A stretch of 26,844 nucleotides of DNA, the filler included, from an uncultured virus (IMG/VR IMGVR_UViG_2061766007_000212) (Duplodnaviria > Heunggongvirae > Uroviricota > Caudoviricetes). It is 2 parts of one record of this genome, joined end to end, with 100 filler letters (N's around TTAATTAATTAA, not from the genome) between each part and the next. Parts side by side here need not be neighbours in the genome. Positions count along the whole stretch, not along the records: positions 12,330 to 26,844 come from IMGVR_UViG_2061766007_000212; 1 more part is not named here. The stretch is one strand, 5' to 3'. The position numbers and the translations under genes are program-made. Shown here piece after piece: positions 1,850-26,844 of this stretch (its first letter is position 1; every line of letters begins with the position of its first letter). Below the pieces are notes generated by a model. The model saw only the letters and a list, made by a program, of their open reading frames with translations. It did not search any database and was not told the DNA's origin.

Positions 1850-1953
1850 NNNNNNNNNNTCCTTTCGGATGCCTTGCACTTGGGCGGGTAACTCATCCTC
1901 CCGCCTACTCGCCTACATTCATCAGCGATAGTCTCTTGACCGTTCACAAGTGT

Positions 1954-1996
1954 TTGCAATTCATCCCGTATTTTGATATAATATCATCAGGAGGTG
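1954..1996 (+). promoter_or_regulatory. Sigma-A-type promoter and RBS for the homing endonuclease
   Basis: TTGCAA (1954-1959), 17 bp, TG-n-TATAAT (1977-1982); AGGAGGTG before ATG 2002. Confidence 0.8.
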
Positions 1997-2001
1997 ACAC
2001 C

Positions 2002-2637
2002 ATGGAAAAGATTTGCTGTGTCTACAAACTGACGAATACCGTAACAGGGAAATTCTATGTCGGAAGCACTTTCAACTTTTATTCCCGGATGAAGTACCAC
2101 CATTATTCTCATCAGCGGAACCCCAACAAAGAACTCGGTTCCGATATTGAGAAGTACGGTTGGAAAGCGTTCTCCGCTGAAATTCTGGAACGTTGTACCC
2201 GTGAGAATGTCCGGGAATGTGAGCGGTTTTACATTGATTCGCTCAACGCCGTTGAACTCGGATATAATCAGACGCACTCGACAACGTATAGCGACTTTAT
2301 GAAAGGGCTGAACGCTGAAAACTGGCGTGATCCTGAATACCGGAAACGCCGTTCCGAACAGTCAAGTGCTGTTCAGAAACAGCGGCTCCAGAACCCGGAA
2401 TATCTGAAGGAAAAATCCGAGCAGTTGAAACGCTTTACCGACACCCTGAAAAAGCCTGTCGGGATGTTCACCAAAGAAGGTGAATTGCTCCGCACATTCG
2501 AAGGAACCCGTGCCGCTGAACGTTGGCTGATTGAGCATGGTATCACTCAATCACCGAACGCCAGTTCATCCATCGCCAACTGTGCAAATGGCGGTCGGCA
2601 TAAGTCCGTTTACGGTTATGTGTGGAAATACTTGTGA
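2002..2637 (+). CDS. GIY-YIG homing endonuclease with C-terminal NUMOD1/IENR1-like DNA-binding domain
   Basis: CVYKLTN…KFYVGST…R…H, ECERFYI, GYN catalytic motifs; C-terminal KKPV…GELLRTF…AA…SSIANCA…K…YGYVWKY. Confidence 0.9.
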   Translation: MEKICCVYKLTNTVTGKFYVGSTFNFYSRMKYHHYSHQRNPNKELGSDIEKYGWKAFSAEILERCTRENVRECERFYIDSLNAVELGYNQTHSTTYSDFMKGLNAENWRDPEYRKRRSEQSSAVQKQRLQNPEYLKEKSEQLKRFTDTLKKPVGMFTKEGELLRTFEGTRAAERWLIEHGITQSPNASSSIANCANGGRHKSVYGYVWKYL

Positions 2638-8038: not shown

Positions 8039-8519
8039 TACCGAGCCGCCTCCTTGATGCTTCCACAAAATCCCGCATCAGGTCACTTCCGGCGGTTTCC
8101 GTTGATACCATATCAGCAGTCAGATCCCGGTATGTCGCCGCCAGGTCGCGAAGTTTGAAAACCTTTGTCGCTTCCTTTGTCTTTCCCTTGTCGCGCTCGA
8201 TCATGCTTTGCCTGGTTTCCGTTCCGATTGAGTCCGGCAGGCTGTCCAGTTCCTTTTCCAGCTTCCGCAGGAGTTTCGCCTTGATCCGGGCGGCGATCGT
8301 CGCATTATCGGCGGCTGTTGTGGCGATTTTCTGCTCGACTTTGGCTTGCGCTTTGCTCATGGCTCTTTCCCGGTCTTTGACCCATCCGTCGCGGATGGAC
8401 TTATCCCGGATCCTGCCGTAATCAATGCCGTATTTTGCAGCGAGCTTTCTTTGGCTTATACCGCCGGCGATGTATTCATCGTGCAGGGCTTGCCAGTCCG
8501 GCACTTTCTTCCTGGCAAT
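8031..8519 (-). CDS. terS: Terminase small subunit, allele A (start ATT 8519 or GTG 8504)
   Basis: DW…EYIAGGISQRKLAAKYGI N-terminal HTH; stop overlaps the terL start. Confidence 0.8.
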   Translation of the reverse strand: MARKKVPDWQALHDEYIAGGISQRKLAAKYGIDYGRIRDKSIRDGWVKDRERAMSKAQAKVEQKIATTAADNATIAARIKAKLLRKLEKELDSLPDSIGTETRQSMIERDKGKTKEATKVFKLRDLAATYRDLTADMVSTETAGSDLMRDFVEASRRRLGNG

Positions 8520-9192
8520 CGTAATCGCCTTCCTTTCTTCGTGTCAGCAGATAGAAGAACGGAGTGTCCAAAGCGGCCAGGATGAACTTTAAGGCATACT
8601 GTCCGAGCATCATTGCAAACAGGCTTGGCCACATTGCCCGGTCAAAGAACCATCCGAAGCCTATTCCAAAGGAAATGCCGATGAACAATACCGTGTCGAT
8701 AATCTGGCTGGTCATTGTGCTTGCATTATTCCAGATCCAGCGGCCGCCGTCCGTGCTTCCATGCTTTGCAATGAATTTATCCCGGATTTTGTGGAAGAAA
8801 AACACGTCCCAGCTTTGGGAAGCAAAATACGCGACCATGGATCCGATAACAAAAATCCAGTTCTGACCGAGCAGTCTTTCGTATGCTGTCTGCGCTTCAG
8901 GATCAGCAGCTGGAAGATACTGTGTAAGTATGATCAGAAGGGTTGCGAGAACCTGTCCGACAAATCCCCATCTGACCGTCCGGTTTGCTTCCTTCTTTCC
9001 CCAGATTTCGCCGATCACGTCTGTTGCCAGGAAAGTGATCGCGTAACAGAGAGCCGCGCCAGGGAGCGTCAGAGCAGTTCCGAAGAGATTGATCCCCGTT
9101 GCGAACAGCTTTGCCGTCACAACGTTGGAGATTACCAGGGCGACAACGAATACCATGTTGATTCCGATCAGGTTTGAGTTGGTTTTTTTCAT
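8476..9192 (-). CDS. yhhQ: Queuosine-precursor transporter (VUT/YhhQ, COG1738), allele A
   Basis: Hydrophobic; ISNVVTAK, FLATDVIGEIWG, AYFASQSWDV, NNASTMTSQIIDT, LDTPFFY motifs; follows queC. Confidence 0.9.
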   Translation of the reverse strand: MKKTNSNLIGINMVFVVALVISNVVTAKLFATGINLFGTALTLPGAALCYAITFLATDVIGEIWGKKEANRTVRWGFVGQVLATLLIILTQYLPAADPEAQTAYERLLGQNWIFVIGSMVAYFASQSWDVFFFHKIRDKFIAKHGSTDGGRWIWNNASTMTSQIIDTVLFIGISFGIGFGWFFDRAMWPSLFAMMLGQYALKFILAALDTPFFYLLTRRKEGDYDCQEESAGLASPAR

Positions 9193-9217
9193 AGGTGTTT
9201 CCTACCTCTTCCTTTTT

Positions 9218-9481
9218 TTATTGCACCGGGTCTTTTAGCCCGTTTGCTTCAAATGCTTTTTTTCGATCAATACAGGTTCCGCATTTTCCGCAGGGATGCT
9301 CCCCGCCTTCATAGCATGACCATGTGAGATCATAGGGTACGCCGAGCATTGTTCCTTCGTAAACAATATCGGCTTTGGTTTTTTCGATGAACGGCGCGAT
9401 GACTTCCACCTGTCCATCTGTTCCGAAGATGATCGCCCGGTTGATTGCCGCCGTGAACTCCGGCGTACAATCCGGATACGC
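9218..9481 (-). CDS. queC: QueC, C-terminal fragment (allele A)
   Basis: YPDC…TWSCY…CGKCGTC Zn site. Confidence 0.88.
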   Translation of the reverse strand, partial: AYPDCTPEFTAAINRAIIFGTDGQVEVIAPFIEKTKADIVYEGTMLGVPYDLTWSCYEGGEHPCGKCGTCIDRKKAFEANGLKDPVQ

Positions 9482-14417: not shown

Positions 14418-14927
14418 AACATTCTTGATGCAAGGATCAGCCGGGGAAGGTGGATTCAAGTCCGCAATATGCCAGCGGTCTTTCGCAGCGTATGTACGGC
14501 GGAAGCACTCTTGCACCATGCTGTCATGCAGTAGGTTGATTTCGCAGAAGTAAACCGAACCGAGCGACATACCTGTTATCGCCTTGTGCGAGTCAGCTTT
14601 GCCGCCGCCCTTCCAGTAAACCTTTTTGTCACCGTCCGGGAGATGGATCAGCAGATGCGCACCGCTGTCATCATGGCTGGTTCTGCAATGGCCTTTGAAG
14701 ATGTGCAGAAGGCCCATTCCGTCACCGTCCATGATCAGCCGGAAAGCCTGCTCTGCGCTGTATGCGGTGACAAGGTGTATATTATCCCGGCTCCGTATCA
14801 GATGACGGGCGAAGCGCATGATCCCGGCGGTGGTTTTCCCGCTTCTGGGCGTTCCCTCCAGCCAGTCAAGAGTCCGGTCAAACGGCTTCATGATCAGGTC
14901 GGCTTGTTTGGCTCCCCACTCGATCAT
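14418..14927 (-). CDS. terL: Terminase large subunit, N-terminal fragment, allele B
   Basis: EGTPRSGKT Walker A; ATGA overlap with the terS stop. Confidence 0.9.
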
Positions 14928-15418
14928 GATTCGGCCCGCCTTTCCAGTTCAAGCAGACTTTGAAGCAGTTCGTTGCCGGTTTGCTCGGTCTGCACCATAT
15001 CAGCGGTCAGGTCTTTATATGCTGCCGCAAGGTCTCGCAGTTTGAATGACTTTGCCGCTTCCTTGACCTTCTGTATTCTCCGGCCATCCTGTGAAAACTC
15101 GTTCTCTGTTACGCTGTTCCGGGTTTCACTCCCGATCATGTCCGGGAGAGCATCAATTTCCCTTTCCAGTTTGCGAAGAAGTTTGGTTCTGATCCTGGCG
15201 GCGATCGTAGCATTATCTGCGGCAATATCGGCTGTTTTTTGCAGTGCTTTTGCGGTGGCTTTGGTTTCTGCCTCTTTCCTCATGGCAAACCATCCTTCAA
15301 CGGTTGCCCTGGGAGATAGGACATTGATGCTGACTCCGTATTTCTTCGCCAGCTTTCGGTAACTTGTTCCGCCGCCGATATACTCTGCCCGGATAGCGTT
15401 CCAGTCTACGCTACCAAT
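14924..15418 (-). CDS. terS: Terminase small subunit, allele B (start probably ATT 15418 or GTG 15427)
   Basis: DWNAIRAEYIGGGTSYRKLAKKYGV HTH; shares AADNATIAARI..KLLRKLE and FKLRDLAA with allele A. Confidence 0.8.
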   Translation of the reverse strand: MGSVDWNAIRAEYIGGGTSYRKLAKKYGVSINVLSPRATVEGWFAMRKEAETKATAKALQKTADIAADNATIAARIRTKLLRKLEREIDALPDMIGSETRNSVTENEFSQDGRRIQKVKEAAKSFKLRDLAAAYKDLTADMVQTEQTGNELLQSLLELERRAES

Positions 15419-15423
15419 GGGAA

Positions 15424-16089
15424 TCACCCCCGTTTTCGTGTCAGCAGGTAAAAGAAGGGAGTATCCAGAGCCGCGAGGATGAACTTCAGAACATACTGTC
15501 CGATCATCATTCCCGCCAGGCTCGGCCACATCGCCTTGTCAAACAGCCATCCGAAACCAAGACCGAAAGCGATGCCGATAAAAAGAACGGTGTCGATAAT
15601 CTGGCTGGTCATTGTGCTGGCATTGTTCCAGATCCACCGTCCGCCTTCTGTGCTGCCGTGCTTTGCGATGAACTTATCCCGGATTTTATGGAAGAAGAAC
15701 ACATCCCAGCTCTGGGAAGCGAAATATGCCACCATAGAGCCGATAACGAATATCCAGTTCTGACCCAGCAGACGCTCGTATGCAGCCTGTGCTTCCGGAT
15801 CTGCTGCCGGGAGATATTGTGTCATGACGATCAGGAGCGTCGCCACCACCTGTCCGACGAATCCCCATCGAACTGTCCGGTTTGCCTCTTTCTTTCCCCA
15901 GATTTCACCGATAACATCGGTTGCCAGGAATGTGATCGCATAGCAGAGAGCCGCGCCTGGGAGTGTCAGCGGAGATCCGAAAAGATTGATGCCGGTTGCA
16001 AACAGTTTTGCCGTTACTACATTGGAGATAACCAGGGCAACAACGAATACCATGTTGATTCCGATCAGGTTTGAATTGGTTTTTTTCAT
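15424..16089 (-). CDS. yhhQ: Queuosine-precursor transporter (VUT/YhhQ), allele B
   Basis: Same VUT motifs as 8476-9192. Confidence 0.9.
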   Translation of the reverse strand: MKKTNSNLIGINMVFVVALVISNVVTAKLFATGINLFGSPLTLPGAALCYAITFLATDVIGEIWGKKEANRTVRWGFVGQVVATLLIVMTQYLPAADPEAQAAYERLLGQNWIFVIGSMVAYFASQSWDVFFFHKIRDKFIAKHGSTEGGRWIWNNASTMTSQIIDTVLFIGIAFGLGFGWLFDKAMWPSLAGMMIGQYVLKFILAALDTPFFYLLTRKRG

Positions 16090-16113
16090 AGGTGTTTCCT
16101 ACCTCTTCCTTTT

Positions 16114-16791
16114 TTATTGCACCGGGTCTTTTAACCCGTTTGCTTCGAATGCTTTTTGTCGATCAATACAGGTTCCGCATTTTCCGCAGGGATGCTCCCC
16201 GCCTTCATAGCAAGACCATGTGAGATCATAGGGTACGCCGAGCATGGTTCCTTCATAAACAATGTCGGCTTTGGTTTTTCTGATGAACGGGGCATGGACT
16301 TCCACCTGTCCATCTGTTCCGTAGATTATCGCCCGGTTGATTGCCGCCGTGAACTCCGGCGTACAATCCGGATACGCATTCCCGGCCGCATCGTCTGCAT
16401 GAGCCCCGTAGTAGATTTCCTCTGCTCCGATGCTGACCGCGATACTGGCGGCAGCGGAGAGCATCAGCCCGTTTCTGAACGGAACGTATGTACTGACCGG
16501 TTTTCCGGGATCGTTTTTCTGCTGCTCTGCATAACTTCCTTCAGGAATAGCGTTTTTTGAGCTTTTAAGCAGGCTACAATCGCTTTTGCTGAAGATCGTG
16601 GATAAATCCAGCTCCATCAGTTCAACCCGGTAATATCGCGCAATATTCCGCGCAGATTGCATCTCCCTGTCGTGCCTCTGGCCATAATACATGTTGACAG
16701 CCAGCACATCCTCTGCATGATGCTTTTTCAGAGCAAAAGCCAGGCAGGTTGAAGAGTCCAGCCCGCCGGATAAAAGAACTACTGCCTTCAT
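16114..16791 (-). CDS. queC: 7-cyano-7-deazaguanine (preQ0) synthase QueC, complete (225 aa)
   Basis: SGGLDS PP-loop, YGQRH, TYVPFRN, YPDC, WSCY, CGKCGTC; ATGA coupling to the upstream gene. Confidence 0.95.
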   Translation of the reverse strand: MKAVVLLSGGLDSSTCLAFALKKHHAEDVLAVNMYYGQRHDREMQSARNIARYYRVELMELDLSTIFSKSDCSLLKSSKNAIPEGSYAEQQKNDPGKPVSTYVPFRNGLMLSAAASIAVSIGAEEIYYGAHADDAAGNAYPDCTPEFTAAINRAIIYGTDGQVEVHAPFIRKTKADIVYEGTMLGVPYDLTWSCYEGGEHPCGKCGTCIDRQKAFEANGLKDPVQ

Positions 16792-16940
16792 AAATATTTC
16801 TCCGCATACTGCTGATATTTCAGCCATTCTGTAAAGTTGTTCAGCGCGGCTTCCCGGCTGGCTCCGATCCGGTGACCTTTCGGAGCATCTTTTTTCCGCA
16901 TGGTCTTTCCGTCGAAGTAATACAGGAAACCGAACCTGTT
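16788..16940 (-). CDS. TGT/DpdA-like protein, C-terminal fragment (another allele)
   Basis: [14 protein letters not shown]…[13 protein letters not shown], copy of 17270-17422. Confidence 0.8.
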   Translation of the reverse strand, partial: NRFGFLYYFDGKTMRKKDAPKGHRIGASREAALNNFTEWLKYQQYAEKYL

Positions 16941-16950
16941 NNNNNNNNNN

Positions 16951-17256
16951 CGTACTGACCGGTTTCCCTGGGTCGTTTTTCTGCTGTTCTGCGTAGCTTC
17001 CTTCAGGAATAGCGTTTTTTGAGCTTTTAAGCAGGCTACAATCGCTTTTGCTGAAGATCGTGGATAAATCCAACTCCATCAGTTCAACCCGGTAATATCG
17101 TGCAATATCCCGCGCAGATTGCATCTCCCTGTCGTGCCGCTGACCGTAATACATATTCACCGCCAGCACATCTTCTGCATGATGCTTTTTCAATGCAACA
17201 GCCAGGCAGGTGGAAGAATCCAGCCCGCCGGATAAAAGAACTACTGCCTTTTTCAT
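16951..17256 (-). CDS. queC: QueC, N-terminal fragment (another allele)
   Basis: [14 protein letters not shown]…YGQRH; AAGGAAGG RBS. Confidence 0.88.
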
Positions 17257-17269
17257 TTCTTGACCTTCC

Positions 17270-18380
17270 TTATAAGTATTTCTCCGCATACTGCTGATAT
17301 TTCAGCCATTCAGTAAAATTATTCAGAGCGGCTTCCCTGCTTGCTCCGATCCGGTGACCTGCCGGAGCATCCTTTTTCCGCATGGTCTTTCCGTCGAAGT
17401 AATACAGGAAACCGAACCTGTTNNNNNNNNNNCTCATCTGCGTAAAAGAATGATTCCAGAATGTACGGGCGGTATTCCGTAACAGTTTTGTCATACCCCC
17501 CCATTCCGCCAGGGCCAGACACCGGCGAGNNNNNNNNNNGGTTGTCCAGGCTGTCGAGTCCACGCTGTCAAAATGACAGGTTTTTAACCAGTCCAACGCT
17601 GTGAATCCCAACCCGTGCACCTTAGCCCCTCGTTTATGAGCTTCGCCAATGAGCGCAGGAAACGCGCCGTATTTCTCTTTCCTGATCTCACCGCTGACAA
17701 TACCGCCGATCGCCACGTACCCGTACTCATCACACATCCTTTTATATTCATCCAAACCTCTTGAAAGATGCCAGACCGGGATGCATGGCCGGTTCGTCAG
17801 CTTTTCCAGTTTTGACCTGAACTGTTTTACCCGGTCGTATCCGACCACAACGTCGATGTCCAGTTCAAAGTACTTCTGAACATTGTTCCGGTTGATGAAA
17901 TCCGCATATCGTTCGATGTATTCGTCCCAATTCGGAGAGCCGCCCTTGCCTTGCATGAACGTGAACGCTCCGCTGTCGAGCAGGAAATCCCCGAAGTGCG
18001 GGATCAGCCGTTCTGTGTCTTCGTCCGCATAAAAAAAAGACTCCAGAATGTAAGGGCGATATTCATTAACAGTTTTGTCATACCCCCCCATTCCGCCAGG
18101 GCCAGACACCGGCGAGGTATAACTGCATTTGACCTCCGTTGACAGGATTTTGTGCATCCCGTTCTGTCCTGCAAGATAAATCTGCATTTTTCGTTTTTTT
18201 TTACGTTCTCGAGGAGTTCGTCGTGAATCCAATGCCTTGACTCCCCCCCCCGCCAGGAAAATTTCCATTGCATCCTCCGTGGCGTTGGTAAACGCTTGAC
18301 CTTCTGCCATTCTTCGGCAGGTTTCTTTCCAGAGCGGTTTCAGGTTGCCTGATACCCCCCACCGCCATATATAGGATCAT
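17270..18380 (-). CDS. Compact tRNA-guanine-transglycosylase-fold (DpdA-like) protein with frameshift-segmented, repeated N-terminal modules; interrupted by N spacers
   Basis: LLDSGAF, ELDID, IPVWH, VAIGG, VHGLG, DSVDS match TGT-family catalytic motifs; adjacent to queC and yhhQ; true start ambiguous (18380, 18268, 18187 or 18128). Confidence 0.72.
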
Positions 18381-18865
18381 GGCGTAAACCACTCTCCGCA
18401 GTGCGGGCATTTGATTTGCTTCGGCTCTTTGCCCTCCTTCTCTGGAGCAGGTGCAAACAGATCGTCAAGGCTGTCTGCATCCGGGAAAACGAAGTTCAGC
18501 TCTTCGAAGTCCTGGCCCTCAATAGCCAGGGCGGCGCACTCTTCCTCCAACGTCTGGAAGTCCCAGGCCGAGAGTTCAGCAGTTCGATTGTGTCTGATCA
18601 TGTATTCCCGCCGCTGTTTATCTGACAGGTGATCCAGCCGAATGCAGGGAACCTCATCAAGCCCGAGTTCCGTTGCTGCAATCTGCCGCCCGTGTCCCTC
18701 GACTATTACGTTGTCTTCGCCCCAGATACCGATTGGATCATTGAAGCCGTCTTCAAGGATTGACTTTTTGATCGCTTCGATATCATCCGGCGCATGACGG
18801 CGAGCGTTCTTTTCGTATGGTTTCAGATCACCCGGCGGCAGATATACAATCTGCAGTTTTTCCAT
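18377..18865 (-). CDS. ParB/Srx-like N-terminal domain protein with C-terminal Zn ribbon
   Basis: LKPYEKNARRH…SI…GFNDPI…IVEGHGR..AA..LG; CPHCG at the C-terminus. Confidence 0.85.
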   Translation of the reverse strand: MEKLQIVYLPPGDLKPYEKNARRHAPDDIEAIKKSILEDGFNDPIGIWGEDNVIVEGHGRQIAATELGLDEVPCIRLDHLSDKQRREYMIRHNRTAELSAWDFQTLEEECAALAIEGQDFEELNFVFPDADSLDDLFAPAPEKEGKEPKQIKCPHCGEWFTP

Positions 18866-18971: not shown

Positions 18972-19001
18972 AAAAAATAGCGGCATTCACTTGCCGCTTT
19001 T
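18972..19001 (-). terminator. Terminator-like hairpin immediately after the late promoter
   Basis: AGCGGCA-AGTGAA-TGCCGCT followed by ATTTTTT. Confidence 0.6.
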
Positions 19002-19046: not shown

Positions 19047-19487
19047 TTAAGCGGCCTTTGATTGAAGGTACTTCGAAATCAGCAGTAATGCACGGCCATG
19101 AATGACAAAAATCTGCGTTCGCTCATAATGCATTGCCTCGCATATTTCCGGGAACCCATCCCCGTTGATATACCGCCTTGTCAGCACCTCCTTCTGCCGC
19201 TCGTCCTTCAGGCTGTCAATCGCAGACAGGATTTCCCGCAAGGCCGTTTCCGCTTCAGCCTTATACTTGTATAAGATTTCGCAGGCATCAACAGCCGAAC
19301 AGACATCCCTTGCCATCGGATCATGTTCTGCCGGTGAGGATAATACCTTGATCTCCTTCAGCGTAATGCCCGTATTGGTCGCCCGTGCTAACGCTTCGTC
19401 AATCGCCCTTTGCAGAGCGTCCACCCGCCCGCAGAGCGACTTATACCGCCGCAGAAATACCTTTGCGGGGTTCTCCTGTCTGCTCAT
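19047..19487 (-). CDS. Late transcriptional regulator, ArpU/DUF1492-like
   Basis: AKVFLRRY…coiled coil…IDSLKDERQKEVLTRRYI…I…HGRAL sigma-4-like HTH; last gene before the packaging operon. Confidence 0.8.
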   Translation of the reverse strand: MSRQENPAKVFLRRYKSLCGRVDALQRAIDEALARATNTGITLKEIKVLSSPAEHDPMARDVCSAVDACEILYKYKAEAETALREILSAIDSLKDERQKEVLTRRYINGDGFPEICEAMHYERTQIFVIHGRALLLISKYLQSKAA

Positions 19488-20511: not shown

Positions 20512-20808
20512 TTACTTGCCGATTGTAATCGTCATGTTTCCATGATTCTCAATGTGCTTGTTGTTCTCTCCGTTCTGAACGATTGTCATATGTTCGGTGC
20601 AAGCCCAATCTCCGTTGAACGTGTACTTGTCATGCTTTGTGATAATCGTCCTTTTGTTCCATGCTTCTACGTTATCCTCAACCGAACATGCTTCACGTTG
20701 CCAAGATGCCATAAGGCAATCACCGCACCAGATATAACTCCAGTTTCCTTCGTCTTTAATCATGACGTCTGTCCCACCGCAGAACGGACAAGGTTTAAGT
20801 TTCTGCAT
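20512..20808 (-). CDS. Lar-like (restriction alleviation family) Zn-finger protein
   Basis: LKPCPFCGG…CGDC…EAWNKR. Confidence 0.72.
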   Translation of the reverse strand: MQKLKPCPFCGGTDVMIKDEGNWSYIWCGDCLMASWQREACSVEDNVEAWNKRTIITKHDKYTFNGDWACTEHMTIVQNGENNKHIENHGNMTITIGK

Positions 20809-20810
20809 CC

Positions 20811-21113
20811 TCACTTCTCCTTTACGTTGAACCAATTGAACTCATCAGTTTTAATCCAAATCTCAAGAGCATTATCTTCTACCGATATGGTTTCAACGGT
20901 TAATTCTCCAAGCAGATCAAGTAAACAACTATGCGAATTGAACCTAACGTGTGTCCATTCTTCGCATTCCGGGCAGATGATAAGCTCGTCCCCACCTTCG
21001 TCATAGTTGCTATACGCACCGCTCCGTACCAAGGCGAGAACATCCTTCAGTTTCGCTGTCTTCTTCGGAAAGCGGTGGTACTTTTTCAACTCTTTTTTCA
21101 ACTCTTCAGTCAT
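20811..21113 (-). CDS. Hypothetical protein (CPEC motif); partial second copy at 21222-21303
   Basis: GGGGAGG RBS; tight packing with neighbours. Confidence 0.7.
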   Translation of the reverse strand: MTEELKKELKKYHRFPKKTAKLKDVLALVRSGAYSNYDEGGDELIICPECEEWTHVRFNSHSCLLDLLGELTVETISVEDNALEIWIKTDEFNWFNVKEK

Positions 21114-22111: not shown

Positions 22112-22585
22112 TGTTGTCCAGGCTGTCGAGTCCACGCTGTCAAAATGACAGGTCTTTAACCAATCCAAAGCTGTGAATCCCAGGCCGTGGACTTTAGCCC
22201 CTCGTTTATGTGCTTCACCAATGAGCGCAGGAAACGCACCGTATTTCTCTTTCCTGATCTCACCGCTGACAATACCGCCGATCGCAACGTACCCGTACTC
22301 ATCACACATCCTTTTATATTCATCAAGACCGCGTGACAGATGCCATACTGGAATACAAGGTCTGTTTGTCAGCTTCTCCAGCTTTGCCCGGAACTGTTTT
22401 ACCCGGTCGTATCCGACTACGACATCAATATCAAGTTCAAAGTATTTCTGTACTTTGTTCCGGTTGATGAAGTCCGCGTATCGTTCGATATATTCATCCC
22501 AGTTCGGAGAACCGCCCTTGCCCTGCATGAACGTAAACGCTCCGCTGTCGAGCAGGAAATCCCCGAAGTGCGGGATCAGCCGTTC
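22112..22585 (-). CDS. TGT/DpdA-like protein, catalytic core fragment (second allele)
   Basis: LLDSGAF…[10 protein letters not shown], near-identical to 17540-18014. Confidence 0.8.
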
Positions 22586-22736
22586 NNNNNNNNNNNNNNN
22601 NNNNNNNNNNNNNNNNNNNNNNNNNNNNNNNNNNNNNNNNNNNNNNNNNNNNNNNNNNNNNNNNNNNNNNNNNNNNNNNNNNNNNNNNNNNNNNNNNNNN
22701 NNNNNNNNNNNNNNNNNNNNNNNNNNNNNNNNNNNN

Positions 22737-22909
22737 ATTCTCGAGGAGTTCGTCCTGAATCCAATGTCTTGACTCCCCCCCCGCCAGGAAAATTTTCATC
22801 GCATCCTCCGTGGCATTGGTTAACGTTTGACCTTTTGCCATCCTTCGGCAGGTTTCTTTCCAGAGCGGTTTCAGGTTACCTGATACCCCCCCGCCATATA
22901 TAGGATCAT
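22737..22909 (-). CDS. TGT/DpdA-like protein, N-terminal modules (second allele), frameshifted at G7
   Basis: [18 protein letters not shown]…MKIFLAGGESRHW. Confidence 0.65.
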
Positions 22910-23388
22910 GGCGTGAACCACTCTCCGCAATGTGGACACTTGATCTGCTTCGGTTCCTTTTCCTCTTTTTCTGGAGCAGGTGCAAACAGATCATCAAGAC
23001 TGTCCGAATCCGGGAATACGAAATTCAATTCCTCGAACTCCTGTCCCTCAATCGCAAGGGCCGCGCATTCTTCCTCCAACGTCTGGAAGTCCCAGGCCGA
23101 TAATTCAGCCGTCCTATTGTGCCGGATCATGTATTCCCGCCGTTGTTTATCGGTCAGGTGATCCAGCCGGATGACCGGCACGGTTTCCAGTCCGAGTTCC
23201 TGTGCGGCGATCTGCCGGCCGTGGCCCTCAACAATTACGCCGTTCCATGTTGCTATCGGATCGTTGAAGCCATCTTCAAGGATTGACTTCTTGATTGCCT
23301 CGATATCATCCGGTGCGTGTTTCCGGGCGTTCTTTTCGTATGGTTTCAGATCACCCGGCGGCAGATATACGATCTGCAGTTTCTCCAT
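22906..23388 (-). CDS. ParB/Srx-like N-terminal domain protein with Zn ribbon (second allele)
   Basis: Near-identical to 18377-18865. Confidence 0.85.
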   Translation of the reverse strand: MEKLQIVYLPPGDLKPYEKNARKHAPDDIEAIKKSILEDGFNDPIATWNGVIVEGHGRQIAAQELGLETVPVIRLDHLTDKQRREYMIRHNRTAELSAWDFQTLEEECAALAIEGQEFEELNFVFPDSDSLDDLFAPAPEKEEKEPKQIKCPHCGEWFTP

Positions 23389-23492
23389 GCTTTGACCTTC
23401 CTTTCAGACCTTCAAAATAAAGCATCAGCCGCCCCGCCATCCTATTGCTGATTCCCTTCGCCCCGAGGAAGGTCAAACCCGGAACGGACACC
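23389..23492 (-). promoter_or_regulatory. Structured leader RNA (second allele)
   Basis: Same as 18866-18969; CGGAACG becomes CGGGGCG, keeping the stem through G-U pairs. Confidence 0.65.
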
Positions 23493-25222: not shown

Positions 25223-25594
25223 TTAAGTCAGTTCAATTTGTGCTTTTCTCCATGTACATTTGTTCTTTCTCTTTCGTCTGTTCCAATCATTCCTTGCCAT
25301 CTGTTCCGAGTATTTATCATCTGCGCTGAATCTGACTCTTACCTTGTTTCCCGGACAACCCCATTTGTTTGAGCATCTGATAGCCTTTACCGGAATATTC
25401 GGATTCCATTCATGCGGTACATCATCAATGATTTCAGCAGGATTTCCACAAAACGGACATTCTCTCAATGAATAATCATAAGGATATTCCCAACAATCGC
25501 ATTGACCGTCTATCGCTTTATGTTCATCGTCCATATGCTCATTAAGTTCACAGTCATCACAATCACGGCAAGTAAAACAGTTACGAATCGTCAT
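25223..25594 (-). CDS. Cys-rich protein with Lar-like Zn-finger domain
   Basis: CFTCRDC…LRECPFCG…CSNKWGC…WNRR; TGATG coupling. Confidence 0.65.
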   Translation of the reverse strand: MTIRNCFTCRDCDDCELNEHMDDEHKAIDGQCDCWEYPYDYSLRECPFCGNPAEIIDDVPHEWNPNIPVKAIRCSNKWGCPGNKVRVRFSADDKYSEQMARNDWNRRKRKNKCTWRKAQIELT

Positions 25595-25815
25595 CAGTAA
25601 TACCTCGCATTCTGTAAATCCTCTGCTCTGAAGAAGATGCCTTCCGTTCCAAAGTCGCATGGAATATAAATAAGATCCGGAATCTCAGCAATCAAATCTC
25701 TGAACTCACGCATATCACCAATACGCACAGCATATTCGTCATCAACATGGTATGTTCCATAGTCCTCATGTTTATTGAACCAATCATTTATCATCTGAAT
25801 ATGTTCGTCATACAT
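25594..25815 (-). CDS. Small acidic hypothetical protein
   Basis: GGGAG RBS; lower GC; absent at this position in allele 1. Confidence 0.6.
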   Translation of the reverse strand: MYDEHIQMINDWFNKHEDYGTYHVDDEYAVRIGDMREFRDLIAEIPDLIYIPCDFGTEGIFFRAEDLQNARYY

Positions 25816-26501: not shown

Positions 26502-26729
26502 TCACCGACCTTCCTTCCGTTCCCCATCAGCACAGAACCGCTTGTTCCATAATTTGGCTCTGTCATACCAACAGTGATTTTTATTTGTGTCAATCATCGC
26601 ACCACCGCAATTCGGGCAGTAGAATATTCCGATGTAAATGCCATGCGGTAGGTAAAATGAGCGGTCTTGGATTTCTTCACCGTTTTCACCACAAAACGGG
26701 CATGGTTTCAAATATTCACTGTCAGGCAT
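26502..26729 (-). CDS. Lar-like Zn-finger protein
   Basis: LKPCPFCG…CPNCGG…WNKR. Confidence 0.7.
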   Translation of the reverse strand: MPDSEYLKPCPFCGENGEEIQDRSFYLPHGIYIGIFYCPNCGGAMIDTNKNHCWYDRAKLWNKRFCADGERKEGR

Positions 26730-26844
26730 CCCAGTCACCCCATTTCATCAGGATATCGGTCAGCACATCGACCGTCCGTTTCACGCTTTCCTTATCGCAG
26801 AAGTGAAGAACAGCGTTTACATTTTCCACGTCTTCCCCGGCGAA
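26722..26844 (-). CDS. Hypothetical protein, C-terminal part (allele of 21595-21855), cut by window edge
   Basis: FAGEDVENVNAVLHFCDKES…MKWGDWDA*. Confidence 0.65.
   Translation of the reverse strand, partial: FAGEDVENVNAVLHFCDKESVKRTVDVLTDILMKWGDWDA

Follow-up and report, generated by a model that had tools for sequence, protein, structure and literature searches.

What do a ParB-type protein, a tRNA-guanine transglycosylase (TGT)-like enzyme, the synthase QueC and the precursor transporter YhhQ do together at the head of the packaging genes of a phage? The question is raised by a 26,844-base stretch from an uncultured virus of the Caudoviricetes (IMG/VR IMGVR_UViG_2061766007_000212), called here the window, in which the four genes lie in a row on the minus strand directly ahead of terS and terL. 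We regard the module, with a probability of about 0.78, as a reduced cassette by which the phage places 7-deazaguanine in its own DNA after replication, with the TGT-like protein of about 248 aa as a DpdA-type enzyme. The identities of the genes, the fold and active-site residues of the enzyme, the gene order and its conservation, and the absence of the early pathway from complete relatives carry this answer. An initial annotation, made from the bare sequence, had come to a similar reading that is largely right, but it overlooked that parts of the window are scaffold artefacts and that dpdA is preceded by an array of start units in several frames.

The genes and their order agree with the initial annotation in searches of PHROG, Pfam and NCBIfam:

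18377..18865, minus strand: ParB-N protein, 162 aa, putative DpdA helper (phrog_620, E 2.1e-44)
17540..18082, minus strand: DpdA core, N-terminal and middle part (YDKTV...DSTAWTT), 98% identical to the homologue P0007
16114..16791, minus strand: QueC, 7-cyano-7-deazaguanine (preQ0) synthase, 225 aa (PF06508, 1e-60; TIGR00364, 185 bits against a cut-off of 150.3)
15424..16089, minus strand: YhhQ/COG1738 queuosine-precursor transporter, 221 aa (PF02592, Vut_1, 6.3e-46; TIGR00697, 128.2 bits against a cut-off of 50.95)

The gene first taken for a TGT matches phrog_887 (6.4e-45). No Pfam or NCBIfam model matches the protein, and in Pfam none does even at E 10, the TGT family PF01702 included. Its core is 98% identical to P0007, a homologue of 248 residues from a very large unnamed family; 4,820 of 5,179 candidates match, and among cluster representatives 3,114 do so at E ≤0.001 and 339 at E ≤1e-30. 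An AlphaFold 2 (AF2) model built on a 68-sequence alignment reaches a predicted local distance difference test (pLDDT) score of 95.4 and a predicted template modeling (pTM) score of 0.92. The top 50 Foldseek matches listed are all tRNA-guanine or archaeosine transglycosylases (best E 1.1e-6), and VIA-align superposes 237–241 of the 248 residues on residues 40–365 of the Z. mobilis TGT (Z 15.8, root-mean-square deviation 3.5–3.6 Å). Judged from the model, the protein has the TGT fold, as had been predicted.

The active site is likewise preserved. Core part 17540..18082 holds D52-S53-G54, E89, D91, H172 and D191 (P0007 numbering); in the alignment D191 is present in 67 of the 68 sequences and the others are invariant. 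By analogy with Asp95 and Asp256 of the bacterial DpdA (passages of PMC10164549), D52 and D191 are the putative general acid/base and nucleophile. The closest characterized relatives are the DpdAs of phages 9g and CAjan. The identity with 9g DpdA is 25% over 240 aa (pairwise BLASTP E 1e-10), a tblastn match to the 9g/CAjan type, with 24.6% identity, spans 90% of the query, and the Asp of the DSG motif and D191 align with LDSGAF and CDSSSW of 9g DpdA. DpdA is also the only match of the protein in a PADLOC scan. These alignments bear out the assignment to DpdA. The alignment contains neither a conserved Cys cluster nor a CxCxxC zinc site, as the initial annotation had noticed; its suggestion that a short, zinc-less core marks a distinct subfamily does not follow, because 9g DpdA likewise lacks CxCxxC.

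DNA rather than tRNA is the probable substrate, since the 9g and CAjan DpdAs, the nearest relatives with a known role, have been linked to dG+/dPreQ0 in DNA and to restriction resistance in passages of Hutinet 2019 (PMC6884629). Alternatively, the genes could form an auxiliary metabolic set that raises tRNA queuosine during infection through import, preQ0 synthesis and a tRNA-acting TGT. The best fold matches are indeed tRNA-guanine transglycosylases, and the PHROG is named 'queuine tRNA-ribosyltransferase'. Nevertheless, we hold this to be highly improbable. PF01702 does not match, the zinc subdomain is missing, the structural alignment begins at TGT residue 40 and leaves the earlier TGT residues unmatched, a bona fide TGT already exists in 4 of 5 host genomes, and the tight linkage to a ParB-type DNA-binding fold fits DNA, on which the nearest characterized relatives act.

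Several database proteins resemble fusions of a DpdA-like domain with pathway enzymes. P0271 (477 aa) is joined to QueC, P0272 (680 aa) to a radical-SAM/PTPS part (QueE and QueD), and P0171 (465 aa) to Vut_1 (YhhQ); P0270 (647 aa) is a long DpdA form found beside them. Most of these proteins are single-contig clusters and may be read-through artefacts.

The ParB-N protein is a likely helper of DpdA because a ParB open reading frame (ORF) immediately precedes dpdA in 57 of the 65 species-level loci that extend far enough upstream, with an ATGA-type overlap in 30. The same pairing recurs in every one of the 13 viral loci that reach that far, as well as in Fusobacterium phage phiFN37. This position fits the partnership that the initial annotation had proposed. 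The Pfam ParB_N model scores 18.7 bits on the window protein, under its 26.3 cut-off; G57, H58, R60 and A63 of the GHGRQIA motif (GxxRxxA type) are invariant in 11 of 11 homologues. The C-terminal tail KEPKxIxCPHCGEWF (18377–18430) is nearly invariant in the 11 homologues although the domain drops to 46–49% identity. The tail has one CxxC only, so that the zinc ribbon assigned to the protein earlier is not borne out. With a lone CxxC, two chains might be joined through a zinc hook, or the motif might be a docking site for DpdA. The bacterial DpdA requires the ParB-like ATPase DpdB (passages of Gedara 2023, PMC10164549), and in mycobacteriophage CRB2 a ParB-like ORF beside the phage DpdA was proposed as a dpdB homologue (PMC6392294). 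The phage ParB is not a member of DpdB, but it probably works like DpdB.

The precursor side of the module is reduced to its last step and an importer. QueC carries the PP-loop motif SGGLDS and a C-terminal Cys cluster, C-x8-C-x2-C-x2-C. A pair of QueC-like and TGT-like genes is also the signature of Qat and type IV CBASS (cyclic oligonucleotide-based antiphage signaling system) defenses, and the initial annotation had therefore kept protein conjugation by QueC- and TGT-type enzymes, or counter-defense, as an alternative. We give this alternative almost no weight. The QatC model NF041925 scores 19.6 bits on the window QueC against a cut-off of 280, while QueC exceeds its own cut-off; the PADLOC QatC model gives only E 0.0017, and the sole PADLOC match of the TGT-like protein is DpdA. 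Furthermore, relatives hold the full preQ0 pathway together with a precursor importer. By these scores the window QueC appears canonical and not Qat-like, in line with the function first assigned to it.

None of folE, queD and queE is found among the 55 ORF pieces of the window in the PHROG scan, as stated in the initial annotation, but the window contains 32 runs of N (2,093 bases in total), and the case for their absence therefore depends mainly on relatives. All five near-complete relatives (CheckV 90–100%, two with terminal repeats) have QueC, and none has a Pfam match to PTPS/QueD, GTP cyclohydrolase I (FolE) or Radical_SAM. The same Pfam families do match in two Bacteroidota-type prophage loci, L060 and L065, that serve as a control, where the order is ParB-DpdA-QueC-YhhQ-QueD-QueE-FolE-x-TerL. 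The missing early pathway is thereby confirmed in complete relatives. The module is best described as a reduced copy of a known cassette, because these distant prophages and the mycobacteriophage Rosebush carry a fuller row at the same place. The L060 (5668–11503) and L065 (5689–11556) loci come from one Muribaculaceae isolate genome and one metagenome-assembled genome (MAG), and each encodes a DpdA with a three-unit in-frame N-terminal extension.

Reduction has gone to different lengths in different lineages. A genome scan gave 79 distinct loci, including Clostridia, Prevotella, Veillonella and Faecalibacterium. Of 60 species-level loci that continue for 2.5 kb or more downstream, YhhQ alone is present in 27, QueC alone in 12, both in 4 and neither in 17. 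Passages of Hutinet 2019 (PMC6884629) already note phages with partial pathways and with YhhQ. The close relatives L005 and L008 in IMG/VR read ParB-DpdA-YhhQ-TerS without QueC, and QueC is thus dispensable within this lineage.

The initial annotation had favored salvage of a precursor, possibly 7-carboxy-7-deazaguanine (CDG). A QueD, a TGT and additional QueC copies outside the phage locus are encoded by four of the five genomes in which four-gene relatives lie, so that host-made CDG or preQ0 is at least as likely a source as uptake, and the salvage proposal is weakened accordingly.

The base that is inserted could also be a 7-deazaguanine other than preQ0, such as CDG, the QueC intermediate 7-amido-7-deazaguanine (ADG), or imported 7-aminomethyl-7-deazaguanine (preQ1). 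DpdA families differ in substrate, and a DpdA2 put dCDG in the plasmid DNA of a queC mutant (passages of Cui 2023, PMC10516641). The name of the E. coli-type transporter model PRK11212, under whose cut-off of 252 the window YhhQ falls with a score of 36, covers the transport of preQ0 and preQ1 alike, and 17 of 60 loci have neither QueC nor YhhQ. We consider such a base improbable, though less so than a tRNA target, since QueC is a canonical equivalog match with preQ0 as its product, and the scanned ORFs include no QueF, amidotransferase (Gat-QueC/ArcS) or DpdC-like gene. Full cassettes in relatives end at QueC, and the same set yields dPreQ0 in Rosebush and CAjan (passages of PMC6884629).

The genes may be expressed together with those for packaging. 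The neighboring features are:

19047..19487, minus strand: ArpU/DUF1492-like late transcription regulator upstream of the module (phrog_36, 6.3e-16; Pfam DUF1492, 2.6e-4)
18979..18998, minus strand: terminator-like hairpin and T run between the regulator and parB (consensus scan, pattern match only)
14924..15427, minus strand: small terminase subunit, probable GTG start (phrog_1206, 7.9e-8, match from residue 41 of the long ORF)

Probable co-expression with the packaging genes is suggested by the ArpU-type regulator ahead of the module and by stops and starts that overlap into terS. The yhhQ gene was thought to abut terS; a GTGA overlap (15427–15424) is possible if terS begins at its GTG, and the alternative is a longer terS ORF open from 15529. 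Both ATGA overlaps that were pointed out earlier are present, with qualifications. The one between parB and the 'TGT' gene (18380–18377) is genuine, but its ATG begins a unit upstream of the enzyme core, and in another frame than the core here, and the one between dpdA and queC (16791–16788) exists in one variant copy while the other copy has TAA, 13 bases and ATG (17270–17256). A scan of the minus strand ahead of parB for sigma-70-like promoters gave no site, only the terminator-like hairpin at 18998–18979, and the late promoter placed there by the initial annotation is thus not supported. Its coupling of modification to packaging goes back solely to gene position.

Taken together, the module could work as follows. 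DpdA would be a small zinc-less transglycosylase of the TGT fold, and the ParB helper would fill the role that the ParB-like ATPase DpdB has for the bacterial DpdA. As the phage appears to supply none of FolE, QueD and QueE, QueC would convert host-made CDG to preQ0, while YhhQ may import preQ0, or perhaps preQ1, from outside. With their place behind an ArpU-type regulator and overlaps into terS, the genes would probably be expressed with the packaging genes.

Several points weigh against this reading. What we infer is the substrate (DNA), the base (preQ0), the helper role of ParB and where the precursor comes from. The resemblance to proven enzymes is low in sequence (25% identity to 9g DpdA; pairwise E 0.069 to Rosebush gp2), the link to bacterial DpdA is marginal (profile E 0.095 to 7ui4; PADLOC DpdA E 0.0013, 15.5 bits), and a profile search against PDB sequences returned chance-level matches only. 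The window ParB has no match to the DpdB models in PADLOC and resembles the ParB domain of phage methyltransferases; it has only 162 aa, lacks the C-terminal domain of DpdB, and reads GHGR instead of DGQQR. No ParB-DpdA fusion is found among 4 long relatives. A phage with DpdA only can have unmodified DNA, as with Orion on a host without the pathway (passages of PMC6884629). MAG bins, moreover, may mis-assign phage contigs. Finally, in the window assembly the start unit proximal to the core is out of frame with it.

The last point leads to the state of the assembly. Self-comparison by blastn shows one phage region present 2–3 times, in copies 78–98% identical that are joined by spacers of 10 N, and the PHROG scan gives an identical minus-strand gene series three times: Lar-like, single-stranded DNA-binding protein, regulator, ParB, DpdA/QueC, YhhQ, TerS, TerL, portal and minor head protein. 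The window is a metagenome scaffold of strain 'bubbles' laid end to end and not a single colinear genome; counts of genes, repeats and overlaps in it may therefore be assembly artefacts. Within the module, N gaps at 16941–50, 17423–32 and 17530–39 separate the following pieces:

17433..17529, minus strand: misplaced strain-variant fragment between two N gaps, outside the linear order of the gene (duplicates 18021–18116)
17270..17422, minus strand: C-terminal 50 residues of DpdA, variant copy 1 (NRFGF...AEKYL, stop TAA; matches the P0007 C-terminus)
16951..17256, minus strand: queC 5′ part, variant copy 1, cut by the N gap 16941–16950 (self-comparison)
16788..16940, minus strand: C-terminal 50 residues of DpdA, variant copy 2, with its stop overlapping the queC start in ATGA (translation)

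The stretch 16952–17422, with the dpdA 3′ end and the queC 5′ end, duplicates 16490–16940 as a variant (89% identical), and 17434–17529 duplicates 18021–18116 (89.6% identity in self-blastn). Because of these three gaps and two duplicated pieces, the 346-codon 'TGT' ORF is an assembly composite. Judged from homologues, a single residue is lost at the gaps, the G in AWTT|G|NRFGF. The stretch is contained, always as contigs, in 20 public runs from 14 studies labeled bovine gut or gut metagenome.

Upstream of the core, dpdA has a leader that the initial annotation did not report:

18083..18380, minus strand: dpdA leader with four tandem start units (three-frame translation)
18380, minus strand: start unit 1, MILYMAVGG
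18268, minus strand: start unit 2, MEIFLAGG
18187, minus strand: start unit 3, MQIYLAGQ
18128, minus strand: start unit 4, MQLYLAGV
18360–18355, minus strand: homopolymer tract G6
18251–18243, minus strand: homopolymer tract G9
18202–18194, minus strand: homopolymer tract A9
18089–18083, minus strand: homopolymer tract G7, proximal to the core

Between the parB stop and the core, the units lie in different frames, and each opens with M-x-I/L-F/Y-L/M-A-G. This start motif is the first barrel strand in the model (residues 2–5), and GGAGG stands 5–6 bases upstream of units 2 and 4. With the proximal tract at G7, as in the window, unit 3 is in frame with the core; at G8, as in locus L013, units 1 and 2 are in frame; and in the three-Gly form of P0007 unit 4 is in frame. 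It is possible, at somewhat under even odds, that the dpdA 5′ region is a slippage-prone array in which the length of the G tracts decides which N-terminus, if any, the enzyme carries.

The leader units can alternatively be seen as scars of repeated unequal recombination at the conserved junction between the end of parB and the start of dpdA. Only the unit beside the core would then matter, the differing G-tract lengths would reflect neutral indels or faulty sequencing, and copies out of register would be defective or rely on an internal start. Whole units do come and go: L003 and L009 each have an extra unit, and contigs of public run X5 skip 92 and 127 bases. There is no leader at all in 36 of the 57 ParB-linked loci, and homopolymers are prone to indels both in nature and in sequencing. 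In addition, AF2 gave the upstream unit of the long isoform P0071 no confident place; with 26 sequences chosen without canonical N-termini, the mean pLDDT was 71.8 and residues 1–19 fell below 50, a result that speaks neither for nor against an upstream unit supplying the first strand.

Selection on the units speaks against mere scars. Purifying selection acts on every start unit in the frame of that unit, and the synonymous excess is confined to it: 54/32 against 14/70 and 0/80 for the tail of unit 1, 20/8 against 0/28 and 0/28 for the tail of unit 2, and 11/2 against 0/10 and 4/8 for unit 3. Across 13 distinct tract-bearing loci, start-led units run stop-free to the tract in three frames in 2 loci, in two frames in 8, and in one frame in 3. 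At least two open frames are therefore seen in 10 of 13 loci, compared with 189 of 26,000 random anchors, and in 11 of the 13 at least one unit reads into the core in frame. Leaders of 46–369 bases occur in 21 of the 57 ParB-linked loci, with at least two units in 18 of the 21, and G tracts of 6–11 are present in 10 of the 21 loci with a leader but in 0 of the 36 without. Nor do the junctions 2/3 and 3/4 hold a variable tract, and hence the multi-frame layout of units 2, 3 and 4 is not an assembly error. Scarring, with the proximal unit alone of consequence, is somewhat less likely than the slippage-prone array.

A single polypeptide comprising all units, hidden by G-tract errors, was also considered and is ruled out by the lack of a variable tract at junctions 2/3 and 3/4.

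The G tracts vary among close relatives. The aligned leaders of L005 and L008 (about 280 bases) differ only in tract lengths, G9/G9 as against G8/G8. By public run, compared on assembled Logan contigs, the proximal tract is G7 in X1 and X3, G8 in X5 and G9 in X6; all 5 indels listed in 856 bases of contigs from the four runs are at G tracts, and run X3 has one contig with a tract 2 bases shorter alongside the main form. As in contingency loci, a homopolymer of at least about 7 lies in or ahead of the coding sequence and varies in length among near-identical genomes. A tract T8 (18031–18038) also lies in the dpdA 5′ region, and the A9 at 18194–18202 is constant in four close relatives, unlike the G tracts. 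Some lineages have their units all in one frame and without tracts.

The N-terminal forms in the database are mixed. Of 116 proteins with the core motif, the proximal unit is in frame in 57, only an upstream unit in 35, and none in 24, figures that are approximate as the census of 120 database proteins was made by regular expression and misfiles a few truncated canonical starts, e.g. P0025 and P0043. With slightly less assurance than the array itself, we suggest that dpdA may represent a novel type of contingency locus, with 3–5 N-terminal cassettes in different frames upstream of one core and hypermutable G tracts choosing among them. The virions of a population would then differ in the DpdA isoform they were made with, some having had none, and hence in the level or pattern of dPreQ0; this would bet-hedge between ordinary restriction, to which the modification is a barrier, and defenses that attack modified DNA. 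A literature search found no paper that links DpdA with homopolymers or phase variation.

Other alleles and genes of the window are:

22112..23403, minus strand: second allele from another strain variant, with parB at 22906–23403 and the dpdA leader and core at 22112–22800, broken by N runs
8479..9481, minus strand: third, more divergent allele, with a queC 3′ fragment at 9221–9481 and yhhQ at 8479–9201, then terS and terL (PHROG matches)
1861..2634, plus strand: GIY-YIG-type homing endonuclease ORF (phrog_314, 4.6e-27)
20515..20841, 25226..25684 and 26505..26744, minus strand: Lar-like restriction-alleviation ORFs of the early region (phrog_599, E 2e-12 to 2e-5)

In the second allele, tract 2 is G8 and a 14-residue stretch is in frame there. 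The region of the third allele is 77.6% identical to 14419–16377. The GIY-YIG ORF is placed between pieces of the minor head protein gene, on the opposite strand and in one variant copy only. Given the Lar-like ORFs in the early region, the phage may hold a second anti-restriction function besides DNA modification.

The module widens an established picture: ParB-DpdA-preQ0 cassettes of the Rosebush type, placed in front of the packaging genes, are widespread among temperate phages of gut anaerobes and are trimmed stepwise to QueC and/or YhhQ, or to ParB and DpdA alone. These successive losses amount to nature's own test of which parts of the pathway phages can entrust to their hosts. From the same series a small ParB protein, marked by its conserved CPHCGEWF ending, emerges as the constant companion of a DpdA that lacks zinc. 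Should the start-unit array be upheld, its significance would be greater. Bacteria are well known to vary DNA modification by phase, and in the literature that we searched no anti-restriction modification gene of a phage was reported to have a switch of this type; the array with its variable G tracts is apparently new and the feature most deserving of follow-up.

Among known systems, Rosebush is the nearest in layout. Its DNA contains dPreQ0 at about 28% of G (passages of Hutinet 2019, PMC6884629), and gp1–gp7 are annotated as ParB-like, DpdA, QueC, QueD, QueE, FolE and TerL. As in the window, a ParB-like gene overlaps dpdA and is followed by queC and the terminase, and the predicted product is the same, dPreQ0. 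Rosebush differs in having QueD-QueE-FolE where the window has YhhQ, and the proteins have diverged: its DpdA is 385 aa long compared with about 248 aa and matches at a pairwise E of 0.069 over 87 aa, and the ParB proteins match at E 0.001 with 27% identity. The 9g and CAjan DpdAs are nearer in sequence, being homologous over about 90% of the length. The 9g enzyme shares the ILES-type, DSGAF, VHG.G.T and DS.SW motifs and an N-terminal 'QIYMAA' strand, and CxCxxC is absent from both; however, it has 317 aa with a longer C-terminus, and its gene neighbors folE, queD, gat-queC and polymerase genes, with no adjoining ParB gene. The closest named isolate is Fusobacterium phage phiFN37 (OR492271), whose DpdA shares 36% identity across 99% of the query. 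Its order is ParB-like, DpdA, hypothetical protein and queuosine-precursor transporter, with parB and dpdA annotations that overlap by 4 bases, but it is without QueC, and the module is not beside the terminase in the stretch shown.

The bacterial Dpd system also combines a DNA transglycosylase of the TGT fold with a ParB-fold protein and conserves the two catalytic Asp (passages of PMC10164549). According to the same passages, the bacterial DpdA keeps a structural zinc site and has four insertions (7ui4 profile E 0.095 for the window protein), and DpdB, a monomer of about 40–47 kDa, contains DGQQR and ends in a helical domain, unlike the window proteins. The window also has neither DpdC nor a restriction part.

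For the leader, parallels are found in contingency loci. PolyG contingency tracts are reported for receptor-binding genes of Campylobacter Fletchervirus phages (Sorensen 2021), and contingency loci have been proposed for the T-even phages T2 and T4 in passages of a preprint that also mentions polyG tracts in the thymine methylase gene of one phage (bioRxiv 10.1101/2025.10.21.683753). As in such phage loci, the G tracts here are 7–11 long, lie in coding sequence, vary among close relatives and shift the frame. In contrast to them, the tracts of the window belong to a gene for DNA modification that also has several start units, each in a frame that may differ from the next, so that a slip may swap the N-terminus rather than just switch the gene off. 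A parallel to this arrangement is given by the multi-ATG translational switches upstream of repeats in the lic genes of Haemophilus.

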